DNA of 64,000 nucleotides, from positions 112,966,001 to 113,030,000 of the forward strand of contig CM059431.1 in NCBI GenBank assembly GCA_030390025.1, written 5' to 3'. Of this stretch, positions 3,073 through 59,384 are shown piece after piece. The translations under genes and the position numbers were made by a program. The DNA is from Squalus acanthias (taxonomy: Eukaryota). The notes beneath the pieces were generated by a model that saw nothing but the letters and a program-made list of their open reading frames with translations, did no database searches and was not told the DNA's origin. Within the stretch, counting starts at the first letter, position 1, and each line of letters starts with the position of its first letter.

Positions 3073-3726
3073 CGTTAAATCAGAAACAGGGTACATTTTC
3101 AGTCAATATGATATTTTGCAGTACATAATCTGAAACGGTAAGATATTTCCACTAACCTTTAACTTCTGAATATATTTCCGTCAACTAAAGCTTGGTGATG
3201 GATGCACTTTCCATGTCAAGACCTTTGTGAAGAAGCATCTCTTTTTATCAGCATTTCATTGTTCCTGGTGCTGTTGACCTTGTGCCCCAGATATCCCCTT
3301 TGGTTTTATTCCCGTTAGGCATAAACCATTATGGGAGCTCTCTTCCTTATTTAGAGAACTTATTTGACAAGGCAAGCTAGCTTGGCCATTCCAGTGATAC
3401 CTAATGTGACTCGGATTAACTACCTATGGGATACCAGCTTTCTCTGGTGACCATTAGCCACAAGATTCCATTTGGGACTGCATCTGTCATTGCATATGCA
3501 GCTGTTCTTTTGTGCTGTTGCCTTTAACTGGTTCCTAACATGGTTGTTTTTTTTATTTAGTAATTTTATATTTTATCTCCTCCATCTTTCGTGTGCCTTA
3601 TATCTTCCCTCTACCACATTATCAAAATTGCAAACGGTGGCATGACCTTTCACACCATTCCAAATTGGCTTCTCTTAAAACGCAGATTTTAACTGAGATT
3701 TTTCTTTCCACTGAACATTAAAGCAA

Positions 3727-3972
3727 TCTGAAATAAAAACAGAAAATGCTGGAGATACTCAGCAGGTCAGGCAGCATCTGTGAAGAGAGAAACAGAGTTA
3801 ACGTTTCAGGTCAATGACCTGTCGTCAGAACAGTTCTGACGAAAGGTCATCGACCTGAAACGTTAACTCTGTTTCTCTCTTCACAGATGCTGCCTGACCT
3901 GCTGAGTATCTCCAGCATTTTCTGTTTTTATTTCAGATTTCCAGCATCGGCAGTATTTTCTTTTCTTTTTGT
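3727..3972 (+). mobile_element. Palindromic Penelope-type mini-insert (hammerhead family 2)
   Basis: 107-nt inverted arms 3725-3831 / 3833-3939 with 2 mismatches seen; ATTAAAGCAA TSD at 3717-3726 and 3973-3982; hammerhead cores at the centre. Confidence 0.8.
3832..3868 (+). ncRNA. Minimal type I hammerhead ribozyme motif (mirror copy on the minus strand, about 3796-3831)
   Basis: agtt-CTGACGA-a-aggtc/atc/gacct-GAAA-cgtt-aact: conserved core, stem II, palindromic AACGTT in place of stem III, and stem I agtt/aact. Confidence 0.8.
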
Positions 3973-4684
3973 ATTAAAGCAACCTGTTTGTCCGTTCCTT
4001 TGCTCATGTGAACCTCTGCTGTTACAAATTTGTAATAGAAAGCATTGCGAAATCCAAAGAAAGTCATTTACGAAACTACATGGCCGAGAATTTCCTTCGA
4101 GCTGCTCCCACTAGGCTGCCGTAGCTTTGCAGTAATTGCGATGGAATATCGCGTCTATGCGCGGAAACCGGGTTTCCGCCACACTTCCAGCAAAGTTGCA
4201 ACAGCGGAGTGGGACCAGCTCTGAGGAAATCTCCAGCGTGTCAAATTGCGTGGGTAATTTTGACTTTGTGCGATCGTGTAAAACGGGTGATAGCGAGTTG
4301 GCAGCCTGTTCTTTTATTTTCACTGACTTCAATAGAAATAAAAAAAAAATTAATCGGGAGATGGAAAACGGGCTGCCGACTCACTCGCATCCATTTTACA
4401 CTACCGCACAATGTCAAGGTTGCCCTCAATCATTCCAATTCTTACTTTGGTGGAAAATTATTACTAAAGAAGTTCAATAATTTTTTTTTTAAACAGTCAA
4501 TGAAGTAAGAACGGTTATAAAATTAACATGACTTTCCTTGTGAAATGCAGCCGTATCTCGTGAGGTGACAGTATGCCAGAGAAACGTACCATATGATATC
4601 AGTGGACTGTATTCAAAGCCTTTCTGACTCCAGGAAAGAAAATAGCTATTTTGATGTGCTGGTATAGCTCAGCATTTTCATTGT

Positions 4685-12271: not shown

Positions 12272-12478
12272 TGATGTGGAGATGCCGGTGTTGGACTGGG
12301 GTGGACAAATGTGAGAAGTCGCACAACACCAGGTTATAGTCCAACAGCTTTATTTGAAATCACAAGCTTTCGGAGCGCTGCTCCTTCGTCACCTGACGAA
12401 GGAGCAGCGCTCCGAAAGCTTGTGATTTCAAATAAAGCTGTTGGACTATAACCTGGTGTTGTGCGACTTCTCACATTT
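12272..12478 (-). mobile_element. Palindromic Penelope pLTR mini-insert (hammerhead family 1)
   Basis: 86-nt perfect inverted arms 12306-12391 / 12394-12479; sequence matches the 3' end of the Penelope element (30717-30843); GGGAATAAGTA TSD at 12261-12271 and 12479-12489. Confidence 0.85.
12389..12425 (+). ncRNA. Minimal type I hammerhead ribozyme motif
   Basis: tcac-CTGACGA-a-ggagc/agc/gctcc-GAAA-gctt-gtga. Confidence 0.8.
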
Positions 12479-12558: not shown

Positions 12559-12661
12559 AATAAAAATAGAAAATGCTGGAAATACTCAGCAGATCAGGCA
12601 GCACCTGCGCAGAGAGAGAAACAGTGTTAACATTTCAGGTCGATGACCTTCCATCAGAACC
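12559..12661 (-). mobile_element. Single-arm copy of the hammerhead family 2 mini-element (degenerate core)
   Basis: Homologous to 3730-3831; GTTTATCTTT TSD at 12549-12558 and 12662-12671; core reads ctgatgg...gaaatgtt. Confidence 0.75.
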
Positions 12662-24470: not shown

Positions 24471-27400
24471 TATAGAAAATAGGTACAGGAGTAGACCATT
24501 CGGTCCTTCGAGCCTGCACCGCCATTCAATGCGTTCATGGCTGAACATGCTACCTCAGTACCCCATTCCTGCTTTCTCGCCATACCCCTTGATCCCCTTA
24601 GTTGTGAGTGTTATATCTAACTCCCTTTTGAATATATTTAGCGAACTGGCCTCAACAACCTTCTGTGGAAGAGAATTCCATAGATTCACCACTCTCTGGG
24701 TGAAGAAGTTCCTCCTCAGCTCAGTCCTAAATGGCTTCCCCTTAATCCTTAGACTGTGACCCCTGGTTCTAGTTTTCCCTACCATTGGGAACATTCTGCC
24801 CGCATCTAATTTGTCTAAACCAGTCAGGATTTTAAATGTCTCTATAAGATCCCCCCTCATTCTTCTGAACTCCAGAGGATACAAGTTCAGTTGACCCAAT
24901 CTTTCTTGATATGTCAGTCCGGCCATCCCAGGAATCAATCTAGTGAACCTTCGCTGCACTCCCTCAATAGCAAGAATGTCCTTCCTTAAGTTAGGAGACC
25001 AAAACTGCGCACAATACTCCAGGTGTGGCCTCACCAAGGCCCTGTACAACTGTAGCATCACCTCCCTACTCCTGTACTCAAATCCCCTTGCTATGAAGGC
25101 CATCATTCCGTTTGCTTTCTTGACTGCCTGCTGCACTTGCATTCCCACCTTCAGTGACTGATGTACCATGACGCCCAGGTCTCGTTGCACGTCCCCTTTC
25201 CCTAATCTGCCACCATTCAGGTAATAGTCCGCCTCTCTATTTTTACCACCAAAGTGGATAACCTCACATTTATCCACATTGTACTTCATCTGCCATACAT
25301 TTGCCCATTCACCCAACCTGTCCAAGTCACTCTGTAGCCTCCTAGCATCCTCCTCATTGTTCACACTGCCTCCCAATTTAGTGTCATCCGCAAATTTGGA
25401 GATATTACATTTAATCCCTTCGTCCAAATCATTAATATATAATGTAAACAGCTGGGGTCCTAGCACCGAACCCTGCGGTACCCCGCTGGTCACTGCCTGC
25501 CATTCTGAAAAGTACCCATTTACTCCTACTCTTTGTTTCCTGTGTGCCAACCAGTTCTCAATCCACGTCAACACATTACCCCCAATCCCATGTGCTTTAA
25601 CTTTGCTCACCAATCTCTTGTGTGGGACCTTGTCGAAGGCCTTCTGAAAGTCCAAATACACCACATCTACTGGTTCCCCCCTGTCCACCCTATTGGAAAC
25701 ATCCTCAAAAAATTCCAGAAGATTTGTCAAGCATGATTTCCCTTTCACAAATCCATGCTGACTTGGACCTATCATGTCGCCACTTTCCAAATGGTCTGTT
25801 ATGACATCTTTAATAATTGCTTCCATCATTTTACCCACGACCGATGTCAGGCTGACCGGTCTATAATTCCCTGCTTTCTCCCTCCCTCCTTTTTTAAAAA
25901 GAGGGGTTACATTGGCCACCCTCCACTCCATCGGAACTGATCCAGAGTCTAAGGAATGTTGGAAAATGATCGTCAATGCATCCACTATTTCCAAGGCCAC
26001 CTCCTTAAGTACTCTGGGATGCAGACCATCAGGCCCCGGGGATTTTTCAGCCTTCAGTCCCATCAATTTCCCCAATACCTTTTCCCGACTAATAAGGATT
26101 TCCCTCAGCTCCTCCCTCTTACCAGATCCTCTGACCCCTTTTATTTCCGGCAGGTTGTGTGTGTCCTCCACAGTAAACACCGAACCAAAGTACTTGTTCA
26201 ATTGATCTGCCATTTCCTTGTTCCCCATTACGACTTCCCCTGTTTCCGACTGCAGGGGACCTACGTTTGTTTTTACTAACCTCTTTCTTTTTACATATTT
26301 ATAGAAGCTTTTGCAGTCCATTTTAATGTTCTCTGCAAGCTTCCTTTCATATTTTATTTTCCCTGCCCTAATCAAACCCTTCGTCCTCCTCTGCTGAGTT
26401 TTGAAGTTCTCCCAGTCCCCGGGTTTGCTGCTACTTCTGGCCAATTTGTATGCAACTTCCTTGGTTTTAATACTATCCCTGATTTCCCTTGTTAGCCATG
26501 GTTGAGCCACCTTCCCTTTTTTATTTTTATGCCAGACCGGGATGTACAATTGTTGTAGTTCATCCATGCGATCTCTAAATGTCTGCCATTGCCCTTCCAC
26601 TGATAGCCCCTTAAATATCGCTTGCCAATTTAACCTCGCCAATTCACGCCTCATACCCTCAAAGTTGCCCTTATTTAAGTTCTGGACCATGGTCTCTGAC
26701 TTAACTGTTTCCTTCTCCATCCTAATGTAGAACTCCACCATACTATGGTCACTCTTCCCCAGGGGGCCTCGTACCACAAGATTGCTGATTAGTCCCTCCT
26801 CATTACACAACACCCAGTCCAGGATGGCCTCCCCTCGAGTTGGTTCCTCAACATATTGGTTTAGGAAACCATCCCTTAAACACTCCAGGAAATCCTCCTC
26901 CACCGTATTGCTTCCAGTTTGAGTAGCCCAATCTATATGCATATTAAAGTCACCCATGATAACTGCCGTGCCTTTTTTGCACGCACCTCTGATTTCCTGT
27001 TTCATACCCTCCCCCACCTCACTACTGCTGTTTGGAGGTCTGTACACAACTCCCACTAACGTTTTCTGCCCTTTGGTGTTCTGCAGCTCAACCCATATTG
27101 ATTCCACATCCTCCAAGCTGATGTCCTTCCTAGCTATTGCATTAATCTCCTCTTTAACCAGCAATGCTACCCCACCCCCTTTTCCTTTTATTCTATCCTT
27201 TCTGAATGTTGAATACCCCTGGATGTTCAGTACCCAGCCTTGATTGTTCTGGAGCCACGTCTCTGTAATCCCAATCACATCGTATCCGTTAACATCTATT
27301 TGCACAGTCAATTCATCCACCTTATTACGGATACTCCTTGCATTAAGACACAGAGCCTTTAGGCTTGTTTTATTAACATCCTTTGTCCTTTTAGACTTAT

Positions 27401-27504
27401 GATTTAGTATTGCCCTTTGTGTTTCTTGCCTTTGTTTACTCGGCCTTCCCCTATTGTTTCTCACCCTTCTAACATTTGTTTCTGACTGCATATTACTTCC
27501 CACT
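24471..27504 (-). mobile_element. Young CR1 LINE, truncated just 5' of ORF2
   Basis: Uninterrupted ORF2 plus 3' UTR; GTTTAA TSD at 24465-24470 and 27505-27510. Confidence 0.92.
24555..27503 (-). CDS. CR1 ORF2: APE endonuclease + reverse transcriptase (982 aa, intact frame)
   Basis: NARSIRNK, GITETW, GDFN and SDH (endonuclease); YLDFQKAFDKVPH, GVPQGSVLGP and FADD (RT). The track starts at a GTG; the first ATG is four codons later. Confidence 0.93.
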   Translation of the reverse strand: MGSNMQSETNVRRVRNNRGRPSKQRQETQRAILNHKSKRTKDVNKTSLKALCLNARSIRNKVDELTVQIDVNGYDVIGITETWLQNNQGWVLNIQGYSTFRKDRIKGKGGGVALLVKEEINAIARKDISLEDVESIWVELQNTKGQKTLVGVVYRPPNSSSEVGEGMKQEIRGACKKGTAVIMGDFNMHIDWATQTGSNTVEEDFLECLRDGFLNQYVEEPTRGEAILDWVLCNEEGLISNLVVRGPLGKSDHSMVEFYIRMEKETVKSETMVQNLNKGNFEGMRRELARLNWQAIFKGLSVEGQWQTFRDRMDELQQLYIPVWHKNKKGKVAQPWLTREIRDSIKTKEVAYKLARSSSKPGDWENFKTQQRRTKGLIRAGKIKYERKLAENIKMDCKSFYKYVKRKRLVKTNVGPLQSETGEVVMGNKEMADQLNKYFGSVFTVEDTHNLPEIKGVRGSGKREELREILISREKVLGKLMGLKAEKSPGPDGLHPRVLKEVALEIVDALTIIFQHSLDSGSVPMEWRVANVTPLFKKGGREKAGNYRPVSLTSVVGKMMEAIIKDVITDHLESGDMIGPSQHGFVKGKSCLTNLLEFFEDVSNRVDRGEPVDVVYLDFQKAFDKVPHKRLVSKVKAHGIGGNVLTWIENWLAHRKQRVGVNGYFSEWQAVTSGVPQGSVLGPQLFTLYINDLDEGIKCNISKFADDTKLGGSVNNEEDARRLQSDLDRLGEWANVWQMKYNVDKCEVIHFGGKNREADYYLNGGRLGKGDVQRDLGVMVHQSLKVGMQVQQAVKKANGMMAFIARGFEYRSREVMLQLYRALVRPHLEYCAQFWSPNLRKDILAIEGVQRRFTRLIPGMAGLTYQERLGQLNLYPLEFRRMRGDLIETFKILTGLDKLDAGRMFPMVGKTRTRGHSLRIKGKPFRTELRRNFFTQRVVNLWNSLPQKVVEASSLNIFKRELDITLTTKGIKGYGEKAGMGY

Positions 27505-28246
27505 GTTTAAGCTAATTAAGGAGAGCTAACACAGATTTGTAAAAGGCAGGTTGTGTTTAACTAATCTAATTGAATTTTTTGATGAAGTAACAGAGAGGAT
27601 TGATGAAGGGAATGCAATGGATGTTGTCTACATGGATTTTTGGAAGGCATTTGACAAAGTATCACATAGAAGGCTGGTTAACAAAATTGAGGCTCATGGA
27701 ATAAGTGGGTCAGTGGCAGCTTGGATAAGGAATTGGCTTAAGGACAGAAAACAGCAAGTTGTGGTAAATAGCTGTTTTTCAGACTGGAGGATGGTAGACA
27801 GTGGTGTTCCCCAAGGGTCAGTGCTGGGGCCACTGCTTTTTTTGATATATATAAATGACCTGAATATTGGAATACAAAGTAGAATTTCTAAATTTGCCGA
27901 TAACACCAAATTTGGGTGTGTGGCAAACAGTGAGGATGATACCAATCGACTGCAACAGGACATAGAAAGGCTAGTAGAATGGGCAGACAAGTGGCAGATG
28001 GAATTTAATACAGAGAAGTGTGAGGTGATGCATTTTGGCAGAAGGAACAGGGAGAGGCAATATACACTTAATGGCACAGTTTTAAAGAGTGTGCAGGGAC
28101 AGAGGGACCTGGGAGTTAATGTGCATAGATCCCTGAAGGTGGCGGGACATATTGAGAGAGTGGTTAACAAAGCATATGGGATCTTGGGCTTCATAAATAG
28201 AGAAGTCGCACAACACCAGGTTATAGTCCAACAGTTTTATTTGAAA

Positions 28247-28284
28247 TCACAAGCTTTCGGAGCAGCTGCTCCTTCGTCAGGTGA
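28247..28284 (-). ncRNA. Minimal hammerhead ribozyme motif in the inverted Penelope arm
   Basis: Reverse complement reads tcac-CTGACGA-a-ggagc/agct/gctcc-GAAA-gctt-gtga. Confidence 0.8.
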
Positions 28285-28718
28285 AGTAAAGGAATACAAA
28301 ATCGACAAAGCATATATAGACAGAGAACAATGCATGTGTAACTTACAATGGCAGACGACTACATTTAATCCTCCTGACTGCCTTTTGTCACACCTCGGCA
28401 GATAAACAATCAGGTCAGCCAGGAAGGCACCACATCAAAGACATAGCAAGATACAACTGAGACAATGAGGTGGGGTTACAGGGGGTCTAATGTGTCAAAA
28501 GCTGCAGTCGGTATGGAAAACGATAAACTTTAAAATTTTTACTTTTTTACTGGGAATCACATCTGTGAACAAGCCAACGACGACTCGAGTCTGGATGACT
28601 CTACGTCATGTATCGTGACATAAACCCAAGATCCCGGTTGAGGCCGTCCTCATGAGTGCGGAACTTGGCTATCAGTTTCTGCTCGATGATTTTGCGTTGT
28701 CGTGTGTCTCTAAGGCCG

Positions 28719-30410
28719 CCGACCAAAGAACATACCCGCCAACTCAATAGACTGATCAAGACCTTCGATCCAGACCTTCAAAGCATCCTACGCGCTCTCA
28801 TCCCACGTACTCCCCGCGTGGGAGACTTCTACTGCCTCCCAAAGATACACAAAGCCAACACACCCGGACGTCCTATCGTATCAGGCAACGGAACCCTGTG
28901 TGAGAACCTCTCTGGATACGTTGAGGGCATCCTGAAACCTATCGTACAGGGAACCCCTAGCTTCTGCCGCGACACCACAGACTTCCTACAGAAACTCAGC
29001 ACCCACGGACCAGTTGAACCAGGAACACTCCTCGCCACGATGGACGTATCGGCACTCTACACCAGTATCCCCCACGATGACGGCATCGCTGCGACAGCCT
29101 CAGTACTCAACACCAACAACAGCCAATCTCCAGACGCCATCCTACAACTCATCCGCTTCATCCTTGACCACAATGTCTTCACCTTCGACAACCATTTTTT
29201 TACCCAAACACACGGAACAGCCATGGGGACCAAATTCGCACCCCAATAAGCCAACATCTTCATGCACAAGTTCGAGCAAGACTTCTTCGCTGCACAGGAC
29301 CTCCAGCCAACGCTGTACACCAGATACATCGACGACATTTTCTTCCTTTGGACCCATGGCGAAGGATCACTGAAAAGACTACACGATAACATCAACAAGT
29401 TCCATCCCACCATCAAACTCACCATGGACTACTCCTCAGAATCGGTTTCATTCCTGGACACACGAATCTCCATCAAAGACGGATACCTCAGCACTTCACT
29501 CTACCGCAAGCCCACGGACAACCTCACGATGCTCCACTTCTCCAGCTTCCACCCTAACCACGTTAAAGAAGCCATCCCCTATGGACAAGCCCTGCGAATA
29601 CACAGGTTCTGCTCAGACGAGGAGGAACGCGATGGACACCTACGGACACTGAAAAACGCCCTCGTAAGAACGGGATATGACGCTCGACTCATCGATCGAC
29701 AGTTCCGACGGGCCACAGCGAAAAATCGTATAGACCTCCTCAGAAAGCAAACACGGGACACAACCAACAGGGTACCCTACGTCGTCCAGTACTTCCCCGG
29801 AGCGGAGAAACTACGCCATGTTCTTCGTAGCCTTCAACATGTCATCGATGACGACGAACACCTCGCTAAGGCCATCCCCACGCCTCCACTACTTGCCTTC
29901 AAACAGTCGCCTAACCTCAGAAGTACCATCGTTCGCAGCAAATTACCCAGCTTTCAGGATAACAGCGACCACGACACCACACAACCCTGCCATGGCAACC
30001 TCTGCAAGACATGCCAGATCATCAACACAGATACCATCATCACACGTGAGGACACTACCCACCAGGTACATGGTACATACTCATGTGACTCGGCCAACGT
30101 TGTCTACCTCATACGTTGCAGGAAAGAATGCACCGTGGCATGGTACATCGGCGAGACCATGCAGACACTGAGACAACGTATGAATGGACACCGCGCAACA
30201 ATCGCCAGGCAGGATTGTTACCTCCCAGTCGGGGAACACTTCAGCAGTCAAGGACATTCAGCCTCGGATCTGCGGGTAAGCGTTCTCCAAGGCGGCCTTA
30301 GAGACACACGACAACGCAAAATCATCGAGCAGAAACTGATAGCCAAGTTCCGCACTCATGAGGACGGCCTCAACCGGGATCTTGGGTTTATGTCACGATA
30401 CATGACGTAG
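28719..30410 (+). pseudogene. Penelope-like RT / GIY-YIG endonuclease ORF, N-terminally truncated, with one in-frame stop
   Basis: FYCLPKIHK, GRPIVS, MDVSALYTSIP, GTAMG, RYIDDIF, FLD, LYRKPT; Cys-rich linker PCHGNLCKTC; VVYLIRC...WYIGET...LRQRMNGH; TAA at 29247-29249 (PQ*ANIFM). Confidence 0.9.
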
Positions 30411-30716
30411 AGTCATCCAGACTCGAGTCGTCGTTGGCTTGTGATTCCCAGTAAAAAAGTAAAAATTTTAAAGTTTATCGTTTTCCATACCGACTGCAGC
30501 TTTTGACACATTAGACCCCCTGTAACCCCACCTCATTGTCTCAGTTGTATCTTGCTATGTCTTTGATGTGGTGCCTTCCTGGCTGACCTGATTGTTTATC
30601 TGCCGAGGTGTGACAAAAGGCAGTCAGGAGGATTAAATGTAGTCGTCTGCCATTGTAAGTTACACATGCATTGTTCTCTATCTATATATGCTTTGTCGAT
30701 TTTGTATTCCTTTACT

Positions 30717-30754
30717 TCACCTGACGAAGGAGCAGCCGCTCCGAAAGCTTGTGA
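30717..30754 (+). ncRNA. Minimal hammerhead ribozyme motif in the Penelope 3' pLTR
   Basis: tcac-CTGACGA-a-ggagc/agcc/gctcc-GAAA-gctt-gtga; AATAAA just downstream. Confidence 0.82.
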
Positions 30755-31438
30755 TTTCAAATAAAACTGTTGGACTATAACCTGGTGTTGTGCGACTTCT
30801 CACTTTTGTCCACCCCAGTCCAACACCGGCATCTCCGCATCATGGCCACTATCGACTTCATAAATAGAGGTATTGAGTACAAAAATAGAGAAGTTATGCT
30901 GAATCATTATAAAGCGCTGGTTAGTATTGCGTCCACTTTAGGAAGGATGTGAAGGCCCTTGAGAGGGTGCAGAGGAGATTTACCAGAATGGTTCCGGGGA
31001 TGGGGGATCTTAGCTGCAACGACAGTTTGGAGAAGCTGGATTTGTTTTCATTAGAGCAAAGGAGGTTGAGGGGTGATTTGATAGAGGTGTACAAGATTAT
31101 GCCGGGTTTGGATAGGATAGACGGGGAAAGGCTGTTCCCACTAGTTGATGGTACAAGGACTAGGGGACACAGATTTAAGGTTTTGGGCAAGAGATATAGG
31201 GGGGACGTGAGGAAAAACTTTTTTATGCAGCGAGTGGTGAGGACCTGGAATTCACTGCCGACGGAAGTGGTGGAAGCGGAGATACTCAATGTTTTCAAGG
31301 GGATAGGCACTTGAGGGAAATAAACTTGCAGGGCTACGGGGATAGAGCGGGGGAATGGGACTGACTGGATTGCTCTACAGAGAGCTGGCATGGACTCGAT
31401 GGGCCAAATGGCCTCCTTCTGTGCCGTTATGACTCTAT

Positions 31439-34400
31439 GGGCTGGATTTTGCCAGTGTGGGCGGGCTGGGGCGTGTCAGGTGGCAAATGTTTCAGGACCC
31501 CGACTCTGAAGTGAAGTGGGGAAAAAGAGCTATTTTCCCCTAATTGGGCAATTGATTTCCTGCGTGTGGGAACCCCTGGCCCAATGAGTCTTTTCATACA
31601 GAAAGTCGCCTCCAATGACATCATCAGTACTGCTGGATTTAAGGCCTGCAAGCAGCCTTGCTTCTTCTGGAGACTGCAAACTTTATGGTGATTGCAGTAA
31701 GGACTTAATTGATCGACTATGTCCACCAGCAGGCAAAAGTGTGCTCCACGCTTCGATGAGCCCTCCCTCCAAGCTCTGGTGGAGGGAGTAAGATCGAATA
31801 AGGAGGTGCTCTTCCCTTCCTCAGGGAGAAAAAAGCCACCCCAGCAGACTAAAGCTGTGTGGCTGCAAGTGGCCCAGAAGGTCAACTCCATATAGATGAA
31901 CTGCAGAACCTGGCTGCAATGCAGAAAGAGGTTTCATGACCTTCTCCGCACAGGAAAAGTGAGTATGACTTTCCCATCACTCTCAATCTGATCCCCATCC
32001 CCTCTCCTCACCAGCACTCTGCTTTGCTAACCTCTTCCTCCACATCCCACTTGACACTGACATCCCTGCACCCTTACCCATTGCCTCTCTCTCTGTGGTC
32101 ACATTCACTTAACTATTCGACCATGTAGCCCTCACACTCCCTATCACTGTGATGCAACAACAACAACAACTTACAACATACAGGGAGGGCCCTTTGTCTC
32201 CTTCTAAGCATCTATGCTATGCATTCTCTACACTCACTCCTTCATTCTCACTCAAACTCCACTTGTGTCCCTCATTGCAGGAAAAGAGAGCCCACAATAA
32301 GAGGGAAAGAGCCATGACAGGAGGAGGGCCACCCTCAGTAGCCCAGCTCACCGCCTGGGAGGAGGCGGCCCTGGAAATCGCTGGGATCGAGGAGGATTCC
32401 CAAGTGGGGGACGGACAGACGGGCGCATCACAGCAAGCTGGTGACAGAATAGTTTGGCATCTCTCTCATTGACATTGCATGAGTCACTGATAATGATTCT
32501 GATGCTCTAACAGATTGACTTATGATCATCTGCACTGTTCAATGTGCATGTAACCTTGACCTCACATCTGCAACTCTTTCCTTTACTCCCTCACAGGACC
32601 ATCGAAAGCCCCCGTCCCCACTGTCCAGGAGGAAGTGCCTGAGCTTCCATACTCCTCAGAGGAAGCTGCAACCTCTGAGGGTGCAGCGTCAGCAGAATTC
32701 AGCGCACCCAGCACCAGCGCAGACACTCACACCTCAGTGGGACCTTCGCGAGATAGAGTAGTGTTGGCACCTGGTGTATCACAGCTCACAAGTGAGCATC
32801 AGCAGATGGTGGAGACAGGGACAGCAGTGGAGAGTCCTCGTCAGAGAGCGCAGGACTCTGCCAGCTCGGCTCAGCTGCATGTTGACCCTGTGCCTCCGGG
32901 TCCATCCAGAAGCAGAGCGGTGCTGGAACTCCAGGAACAGGTGCAGGAGTCTCTGGCAGGTTTTGTCTCCAGGGTCGCTGCGAGTGTGGAGCGAATGGAG
33001 GAGTCCATCGCGAACATGAGCAGAGCCTTTGTGGAGGCATTGGCGCATGAACGCATCACCGCGGACAGGATGGCAACCTCCGTGGAAAGGATAGCTAACT
33101 CCGTGATAAGGATGGCTACCGTAGAGGAGAGGATGGCTATGGTAGAGGAGAGGATGGCTCCGGCCATGGAGGAGCTTAGTTGCCAGGGTCTTGAAAACAT
33201 GGTCATTGTTCAGAATAAAATAACATCTCTTGAGGAGCGATGGTCAGCTATTGAGCAGAGAAACCAGACCTTCATGGAAGTCCTCTGGAGTAGGACTTCC
33301 AGTGCAGAAACGGGTCCTCATGGCCCCCCTGAAGTGCAGCAAGGTGCTGTCAAGCCACTTGCTAGCTCTGAAGTGGGGCTGACCCATGAGAGGGATGTTG
33401 GTGGCAGACAACCAGGAAGTGTGGGCTCCTCTCCAAGCGCTCACACTACCATGCCACTGCGGAGCCCTCGGTCAGAGCCCCACCAGAGTCCCCACCCAAC
33501 TGAGATGGGCGTCTCAGCCCCTGCACAGCCACAGGAGCAGCAGACTGTTGCCGAGCCCTCACAGGCTCGCAACCCCAGAGGACGGCCGCCAAAGGTGTCG
33601 AGGCAGGAGCAGCAAGAAATTGAGCAAGGGGCCTCCACATCTGCTGAAGCCACAGGGGAAGCACCACGTAGGAGCACGTGTAAGAGGAAGATAAAGCACA
33701 AGTAGTCACAAGGGTAGTCACTTGGGTGCTGTGATGTATTGTATTTGGACCAGCCATCCTTGTCATGGTATCACAAACAGATTTGATGGCAAACTGTTGA
33801 AGTTGTGGCCTGTGTCATCTCACAAATGGGACTTCCACATTGAGAGCTTAGGGCGACTTGCAATTGTCAGTATGGTGGTCAGAGTGATAGGAATCCGCAG
33901 GTTCTTGTCCATTGTCGATGCTCTGGTTATTCTGGCCTGTGCAGTTTCAGGTGGGTGAGCAGCAGCTTGGCGCTCCTGTTGTTCATGGTTCTGCTGCTGC
34001 CGTGGCTGGTCTTCGTCCGAATCTGATGTCCAGGAGGAAAGGAAATAAATGGTTCCCATGCATCTGCTATATACCTCAGTTGAGGAAACGCTCAGTCAAG
34101 GTGGGGAGAGGGGTTTCCCAGGAGGTCACACTGGAAATGGATGTCAGGCTCCAAACTTCCACAACAATGAGTAGGCCTGCTAAAAGTTCCCCCAGACCTG
34201 AGACAACAAAGTTCTGCCACCTGCAAATGATGATTGGTGAAAACTCCTTTGTAATGGTGGAGCTGCAGCTGTTACTAAGCAATCCACTTGTGTGGCTGCC
34301 AGCATTACCTGGCATGTTCCAGAGGAGGCGTGTAGGATGGGGGAAATGTCTAAAAATAAGAAAGGCCTCTCAAAATTGGATTATAGAGGCAATTAAGTGG

Positions 34401-57495: not shown

Positions 57496-58649
57496 AAATT
57501 AATAGGAAATTCTGTATTTTTAGAACAATAAAAAAGGTGTATGTGTCATTTTTTACACACACAATTTTTTATTGGGATGCCTCAAAATGCCTCCTTTGCC
57601 TCGTCTTCTTCTTCTTCTTCTTCTTGAACTTACATGGCTCTTCTCGCCACTCTTGTGCCACCCACTAAGTTTCTCTGGCGGGTTTGCCACCAGGCGGGCC
57701 TCCCCCCACCCCACGAGTTCTAGTAAAAGTAGCGTTAAGTTGCCAATGATGTCATCGGGCCACCAGCCCTGTGCTGCAGCACCTGGAGGGAGTGGGGCCT
57801 TCTCAGTGGAGAGCAGAAGGCCAAGGTCGAATAGTGGAAATGTGAGATTGGTTAAATATTCTGTAGTTTTATCATAGAATGGTTACCACACAGAAGGAGG
57901 CCATTCGGCCCGTCGAGCCCATGCCGGGGATGAGGGAGTATTAACTGGCTAAATGGTATAGATATGATTCATGATCAAGTAGCGAGTTCTTGGGGGCAGG
58001 CAGGTTTACAAATTCCATTCTTTCAGGGAGACTTGCAGTGCCCCAAGTTAAACAGCTATTTGTGGTTTTGGGAGGGAACAGTCTGAATTTTCTGCTGGAT
58101 AATAGGTCACTGCTGATTTTGCAAATGACTTTGCTTTGCCTCCAACCACACTGTCTTTTATGCCCAGAGACGTGGCAATGCCTTACTGCCAATGTGGACA
58201 GGTTATACCAATAAGGAACAGGGTGGTAGAACTTGCTCACTGTTTTACCCGTTCAGAACATGTGCAGTGATAAGCCTGGGTTTCACTTTATATCACAACA
58301 CTGGGCACATTTTCATTTCACCTTTTCTTTTTGTGCGTGGACACGGCCGCTCAGTTGATTCATCAGTGGAGCAGGATGAGTTGAGTTGCGTATTTGCATG
58401 GTTGAAGGGAGTGGCTGATGAAAATATTTAACAGTTTTTCAGCCGGTCTGTTCTCGCGAAAGTCAAATTAAAAAACAAAAATACAGTAATAGGGATTATT
58501 ACTAGAACAGTAAGATAGCTGTGCTAAGGTGGTAACTATTGCTGCCATATCACCAAAAATCAAGAGATTATAACCACTGACCTGACTTTAAAGTAAAGTC
58601 AACGCATTCACTGATTATTAAGGTCATAATTGCGCCTTAAAGAGTCACG

Positions 58650-59194: not shown

Positions 59195-59384
59195 CATGAT
59201 GCGGAGATGCCGGTGTTGGACTGGGGTGGACAAAAATGAGAAGTCGCACAACACCAGGTTATAGTCCAACAGTTTTATTTGAAATTACGAGCTTTCGGAG
59301 CGCTGCTCTTTCGTCAGGTACAGTGAGGGAACACAAATCGATTACAAAGTATATATAGACAGAGAACAATGTGTCTGCAGAATG
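59195..59384 (-). mobile_element. Solo Penelope pLTR fragment with hammerhead motif
   Basis: Homologous to about 30665-30844; TGTATGAAAAGT TSD at 59183-59194 and 59385-59396; minus strand reads tac-CTGACGA-aagagc/agc/gctcc-GAAA-gctc-gta. Confidence 0.82.

Follow-up and report, generated by a model that had tools for sequence, protein, structure and literature searches.

A palindromic insert with two hammerhead motifs in the genome of Squalus acanthias, probably a truncated Penelope-like element insertion

Introduction

Endonuclease-positive Penelope-like elements (PLEs) leave 5'-truncated copies joined head to head with an inverted copy in AT-rich targets, flanked by a target site duplication (TSD) of about 10 bp (PMC3846280; PMC8557442; PMC2377424). 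Their tail of 30-40 bp is found on one end only (PMC8557442), their inverted repeats vary in size (PMC2377424), and for one PLE an inverted pseudo-LTR (pLTR) 37 bp shorter, a 31-bp tail and a 9-bp TSD are reported (PMC3846280). The protein of a green anole PLE, Poseidon PAc, was shown in vitro to cut and extend both target strands with a preference for ATT, using uncut RNA as template, on which two reverse transcription start sites define the tail (PMC11167929). The minimal type I hammerhead ribozymes of metazoan PLEs combine the CUGANGA and GAAA boxes with an extra base between positions 9 and 10.1, a short stem I and a palindromic segment 15.2-16.2 replacing stem III; opposite-strand pairs of them, 100-700 bp apart, are known from truncated PLEs (PMC4209133). 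Non-LTR retrozymes are non-coding, pLTR-derived and equipped with type I hammerheads, and consist of direct tandem repeats with at least two hammerheads on one strand (bioRxiv 10.64898/2026.07.22.740005; see also PMC7229834).

We analysed an insert at positions 3717-3982 of a 64,000-nt stretch of Squalus acanthias DNA (GCA_030390025.1, contig CM059431.1), referred to as the window. It shares the head-to-head inverted and 5'-truncated layout, the AT-rich target, the tail on one end, the TSD length and the variable arm size of the PLE insertions described in those papers, and differs from them by its size of about 105 + 140 nt, by lacking coding sequence, by a parent open reading frame (ORF) that is a presumed one, and by both arms ending at the upstream edge of the hammerhead. 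Like Poseidon PAc it has an ATT target, two 3' ends defining the tail, a hammerhead that precedes the 3' ends by about 100-140 nt and, apparently, an uncut RNA template; family and host are different, and the formation of the inverted arm is not treated in the available part of that work. With retrozymes it has in common its non-coding, pLTR-derived nature and the type I hammerhead. It consists, however, of an inverted pair with one motif per strand, and an identity as retrozyme was rejected in view of the tandem definition (bioRxiv 10.64898/2026.07.22.740005).

In a literature search by title and beginning of abstract we found no paper on palindromic PLE stumps in sharks and none on two-nick priming in PLEs. 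Subscription papers and supplements lay outside this search, and these or Repbase/Dfam may describe the family.

Architecture of the insert

The insert and its flanks comprise the following features:

3717-3726, strand not applicable: left TSD ATTAAAGCAA, its last 2 nt compatible with the inverted arm (sequence and repeat search)
3727-3831, minus strand: tailless inverted copy of a PLE end, putative pLTR stump (inverted-repeat and pattern scan)
3796-3831, minus strand: minimal type I hammerhead motif with a stem I of 3 bp and private substitutions at 3813 (loop II) and 3821 (bulged base)
3831-3832, strand not applicable: head-to-head junction, overlapping the upstream C-A-G of the parent by 1 nt (sequence compared with the loose-end consensus)
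3832-3937, plus strand: sense copy of the PLE end, putative pLTR stump (inverted-repeat and pattern scan, run contigs)
3832-3868, plus strand: minimal type I hammerhead motif with a stem I of 4 bp, core 3836-3842, bulged A, stem II of 5 bp, GAAA and palindromic ACGU
3938-3972, plus strand: tail of 33-35 nt, sense arm only (sequence; loose ends behind 3959/3964 place the 3' end of the family here)
3973-3982, strand not applicable: right TSD

The palindrome and the 10-bp TSD reported in a preliminary description of this DNA were both recovered. The inverted arms (3725-3831 and 3833-3939) have 107 nt each, are 98% complementary and are separated by a 1-nt spacer, the two mismatches being located at 3813/3851 and 3821/3843. 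The TSD, which begins with ATT in an AT-rich target, is exact at 3717-3726 and 3973-3982; exact repeats of at least 10 letters arose in 6 of 3000 random searches of a size matched to the TSD search. The final 2 nt of the left TSD double as part of the left inverted arm. The insert is asymmetric, a feature missed in the preliminary description: a tail of 33-35 nt (3938/3940-3972) extends the right arm only.

By every feature testable here the insert sorts with truncated PLE insertions, the reverse transcriptase (RT) ORF of the parent being presumed. It is very probably a stump, that is, a PLE insertion 5'-truncated down to the hammerhead-bearing pLTR end. As such it would be an ordinary PLE insertion, not a new two-way ribozyme device, with hammerhead motifs inherited from the parent element.

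Each arm also contains pyrimidine runs ending in CAG that resemble splice acceptors (3868-3887 and 3919-3936 on the plus strand, mirrored on the minus strand), the first of which is followed by an ATG and a frame that stays open through the tail. Since such runs are present on both strands the palindrome could be exonised in either orientation.

Penelope-like insertions elsewhere in the window

The window is vertebrate-like and rich in LINE reverse transcriptase fragments. It harbours five PLE-type insertions, each with a TSD of 10-14 bp. Besides the insert described above these are:

12272-12477, strand not applicable: palindromic stump of the 28-kb family, 12-bp TSD, 86-nt arms (inverted repeat and pattern scan)
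12559-12661, minus strand: solo tailless copy of the family of the present insert, 10-bp TSD, starting at stem I, core degraded (scan and alignment)
28203-30855, plus strand: long PLE insertion with an RT-thumb/GIY-YIG ORF, an inverted tailless arm of about 520 nt, a tailed sense copy and a 14-bp TSD
59195-59384, minus strand: solo tailed copy of the 28-kb family, 12-bp TSD, including about 55 nt upstream of the core

Three of the five (arms of 86, 107 and about 520 nt) show the same order of TSD, inverted tailless arm, tailed arm and TSD, while the remaining two are solo ends with TSDs; three of the five start at the hammerhead edge. Taking into account this shared layout, the tail on one arm and the TSD, the PLE origin assumed in the preliminary description is supported.

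For the solo copy at 12.55 kb an identity of 87% was measured. The arms of the palindrome at 12.3 kb are 100% identical and overlap by 3 nt where they meet, which is at the hammerhead's upstream edge; the core is intact on the plus strand only, C3 having been lost on the minus strand. The inverted arm at 28 kb is 97.7% identical to its own sense copy, and its centre is located far from the hammerhead. In both the 12.3-kb and the 28-kb insert the two arms share variants of their own.

The 28-kb element sits in a LINE remnant and its ORF is interrupted by an in-frame stop. The ORF resembles HTH_animal/GIY-YIG/RVT_1 clusters (Atlas, 0.96), while searches against Pfam and the PDB returned nothing for it. 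A CxxxxCxxC-type linker ahead of the GIY-YIG motif is Neptune/Nematis-like according to the description in PMC8557442. The best local alignment between the end of this family and that of the present insert is the 8-nt core. As the core is all that the two have in common, the present insert belongs to another PLE family, in agreement with the preliminary description.

Several further observations were made in the window. The stretch 12272-12477 scores 36 bits against the MIR396 model (gathering threshold 80) and is a likely source of false microRNA calls. An intact ORF of 983 aa with an endonuclease-like N-terminus and an RT (24555-27506, minus strand) represents a young LINE copy, and a low-complexity ORF of 381 aa with a basic C-terminus is found in a GC-rich stretch (32560-33705, plus strand).

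The repeat family in public sequencing runs

Family-level data were obtained from contigs, not reads, of four (X1, X3, X6, X19) of 24 public runs; coral and sediment runs with small shares were set aside. X1 and X3 are two samples of one organism (A) and X6 stems from a related organism (B), while X19 is only guessed to be an RNA run. The arms reach a depth of 1-10 million, the flanks one of about 12. A core depth of about 2.6-3.7 million and a flank depth of about 7-13 in the three DNA-type runs give a ratio near 3 x 10^5, of which, being no copy number, only the order (roughly 10^5) was used. The family is very high-copy and the locus is one of very many stumps. A lower-copy repeat, with a depth of several hundred to a thousand from 4070-4140 onward, starts about 100 nt to the right of the insert.

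Both flanks are connected to the insert by contigs of X1 and X3. X6 has one piece that stops at 3732 and a contig that picks up again at 3988 with 183 surplus letters, both at depth 7.3; organism B therefore probably retains an empty site containing a single TSD copy, the joint itself lying outside the joints listed. The contigs of X19 cover the arms, and none of them contains either flank. A>G changes are no commoner among the X19 rows than in the DNA runs, and are no gauge of editing.

The preliminary description regarded the insert as a non-coding mini-element and named random inversion centres as evidence against this reading. The inversion points indeed vary. The depth at the central base of the present insert amounts to 0.53, 0.15, 0.34 and 0.66% of the depth at 3840 in the four runs, which is still about 400-1600 times the flank depth, mostly with the same central base; since perfect palindromes can break assembly graphs at their centre, these counts may be low. 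Among the joints listed (15 of 808) no two are alike, and 14 skip from left-arm ends at 3753-3817 to right-arm starts, which fall within 3833-3850 in 10 of the 14. The finding of varying centres thus leans against a fixed-centre element, with the depth across the present centre leaving room for a small fixed-centre subfamily, which could exist.

The loose ends, of which 24 of 1572 are listed, give information on the parent. Those before 3831 share one upstream consensus (510, 625, 859 and 77 contigs in the four runs), and since the contigs run on into this shared sequence the arm forms the terminus of a longer element. The consensus, listed over 30 letters, ends in CTAAC and a pyrimidine run followed by the CAG of the window; with its apparent branch point it resembles a 3' splice site located at the 5' strand of stem I. 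In PMC4209133 the intron of D. virilis Penelope is likewise described as ending at helix I. A sharp 5' hot spot at the hammerhead edge is only partly supported: loose ends before 3832-3834 are among the top rows listed, but some of their consensuses resemble the sequence upstream in the parent. In X6 and X19, loose ends before 3729-3733 correspond to tailless 3' ends of the family. Minority letters are common to both arms at 3783/3881 and 3754/3910, where the other letter makes up 87-94% of the X1 depth.

The preliminary description would have been weakened if no autonomous element carried this terminal sequence. Hundreds of contigs continue upstream, which points to such an element, but its ORF was not reached. 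A peptide search with the open frame of the arm gave three candidates, none of which was scored, a weak negative; with no parent ORF found, the mobilising protein is presumed from the structure of the insert. Scans of metagenome and viral contig collections yielded no relatives (0 in each). A single match in prokaryote genomes, 35 nt long and devoid of a hammerhead, was rejected as due to chance.

Hammerhead motifs and predicted RNA folding

Hammerheads were called by a pattern scan of both strands and by comparison with the minimal motif as given in PMC4209133. Cores of the type CUGACGA-N-[5-bp stem II]-GAAA-CGUU were located at 3836 (plus) and 3828 (minus), confirming that each strand carries a complete core with a 5-bp stem II. 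The whole window contains six matches, namely these two, three in the second family (12393, 28280, 30721) and one at 58366 with a stem of just 3 bp. The core boxes, the bulge between 9 and 10.1, the palindromic 15.2-16.2 and the UH triplet are present on both strands, supporting the assignment to minimal type I hammerheads with a palindromic loop 3. In Rfam no hammerhead family was found among the three matches in the window or the 27 matches in 3780-3885.

In contrast to the hammerheads of PMC4209133, the two cores lie back to back 8 nt apart, stem II has 5 bp and the 10.1-11.1 pair is A-U, which in both arms replaces the typical, though not absolute, G-C. Stem I has 4 bp on the plus and 3 bp on the minus strand compared with 4-5 bp for the published minimal helix I, and both arm mismatches sit inside the minus-strand motif. 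Within the family the motif varies at N7, position 10.1 and loop II among the rows listed, and a G at 3844 accounts for about a quarter of the X1 depth. Judged from these sequences the hammerhead motif appears to be maintained in the parent family. On the plus strand cleavage is predicted after 3864, and the ACGU is able to pair between two molecules.

One transcript carries one hammerhead together with its antisense copy, the hammerhead always being downstream of the antisense copy. In equilibrium predictions, calculated without Mg or protein, the RNA of the full insert folds as a single hairpin of -192.8 kcal/mol (z -28.8; equalled by 0 of 200 shuffles). Forcing stems I and II costs 42.7 (plus) and 50.0 (minus) kcal/mol in the full insert compared with 4.4 and 7.8 kcal/mol in single arms, which corresponds to a predicted hammerhead fold probability not exceeding about 1e-30 for the full palindrome. 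According to prefix folding the hairpin zips while the second arm emerges. An unconstrained co-fold of two single motifs did not result in a dimeric hammerhead, another pairing of -22.9 kcal/mol being preferred to the forced dimer of -9.9 kcal/mol.

Since the hammerhead fold is 43-50 kcal/mol uphill and the hairpin zips early, read-through RNA is predicted to form a double-stranded hairpin of 105-107 bp in which the ribozyme stays unfolded. Among the two outcomes offered by the preliminary description, the long double-stranded RNA is therefore favoured by the model. The other, a ribozyme presented whichever strand is read, is not supported, in view of the folding cost and the early zipping as well as the broken minus-strand core at 12.3 kb.

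Formation of the inverted arm and alternative explanations

We propose that an endonuclease-positive PLE protein would nick an AT-rich target on both strands, with 10 nt between the nicks, and that reverse transcription would be primed at each nick on uncut PLE RNA. One cDNA would begin at the tailed and the other at the tailless start site; synthesis of both would halt at the hammerhead's upstream edge, and the two cDNA ends would be joined head to head with a 1-nt overlap, so that the mirror arm would be built at insertion. Both arms retain the core, which precedes the predicted cut at 3864, and this suggests a template uncut at the hammerhead of this copy. Minority letters shared between the arms are as expected from one common template; alternatively, a palindromic master, or gene conversion of one arm by the other, could have produced them. 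Taken as a whole, the account of a heavily 5'-truncated endonuclease-positive PLE insertion whose inverted arm was made in the course of insertion seems likely. That the mirror arm was made at insertion is in itself probable, while for priming from both target nicks as the exact route we see about even chances. A more tentative extension, which we consider rather doubtful, is that a short, defined transcript beginning at the splice-site-like upstream edge of the hammerhead acts as a SINE-like template, copied twice by a PLE dimer, once per nick.

The strongest competitor, possible but clearly behind an even chance, is a single priming event, after which the new strand is copied into the inverted arm by fold-back, by self-priming that may involve an antisense template, or by a template switch. 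It would fit junctions that overlap only briefly (by 1 nt in the present insert and by 3 nt at 12.3 kb) and the descent of both arms from one template lineage, and self-priming on an antisense template has been proposed for rotifer PLEs in PMC3846280. By itself, however, it leaves the end of the inverted arm at the tailless start site unexplained, another PLE cuts and extends two strands in vitro (PMC11167929), and the 1-nt spacer at the centre appears too tight for a fold-back loop. Two-nick priming and antisense self-priming are not well separated by the present data. A palindromic master with a fixed centre, transcribed whole and copied in trans by a PLE protein as a non-autonomous mini-element, is unlikely. 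About 400-1600 flank-equivalents of depth cross the present centre, mostly with the same central base, the arms have minority letters in common, and the palindrome at 12.3 kb, which belongs to the other family, likewise has its centre at the hammerhead edge. This crossing depth is nevertheless only 0.15-0.66% of the core depth, all 15 joints listed (of 808) differ, and a hairpin of 107 bp should be a poor RT template. The left end coincides with the tailless 3' end of the family, as seen in the solo copy at 12.55 kb and in loose ends of X6 and X19, which better fits separate priming than a read-through 5' end, so that both the varying centres and this left end make a palindromic master less likely.

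Still less probable is a functional cassette in which a hammerhead cuts whichever strand is transcribed. The complete core on both strands of this copy, and a motif that tolerates variation at N7, 10.1 and loop II among the rows listed and appears maintained in the parent family, would agree with it. With a single hammerhead per strand, located downstream of its own antisense copy, and a hairpin outweighing its fold to the extent given by the predicted probability, a two-way ribozyme is hardly to be expected. Furthermore, stem I has just 3 bp on the minus strand, the 12.3-kb palindrome lacks C3 on one strand, no contig of the possible RNA run X19 contains a flank, and minimal PLE hammerheads do not cleave as monomers and cleave little as dimers according to PMC4209133. 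A foldback DNA-transposon-type element or MITE, or a microRNA-type hairpin gene, would account for the long inverted repeat and for a hairpin that scores against several microRNA models, and has the lowest probability of all. The arms stop short of one terminus with the tail outside, solo single arms with TSDs occur, the TSD length varies from 10 to 14 bp among the five inserts, and all Rfam microRNA scores are far below gathering. On the first three grounds an identity as MITE or foldback element was rejected. The preferred reading thus remains a truncated PLE insertion with a mirror arm made at insertion.

Biological significance

As a single locus the insert matters little, and its value is that of a clean specimen. 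The origin of the head-to-head ends of PLEs is unsettled between self-priming on antisense RNA and priming from both nicks, and an abundant family whose arms come with and without a tail and overlap only briefly at their junctions makes these models testable by counting. The arms tend to begin at the upstream edge of the hammerhead and not at its cut site, which bears on the purpose of the PLE hammerhead. The preference of 5' ends for this splice-acceptor-like edge merits attention.

If the tentative SINE-like template were true, hundreds to thousands of near-identical back-to-back hammerhead palindromes would be expected per genome from at least two unrelated PLE families. Palindromic stumps would then provide a genome-scale record of the unsolved head-to-head step, and the same route would seed the genome with many double-stranded RNA hairpins of 100 bp.
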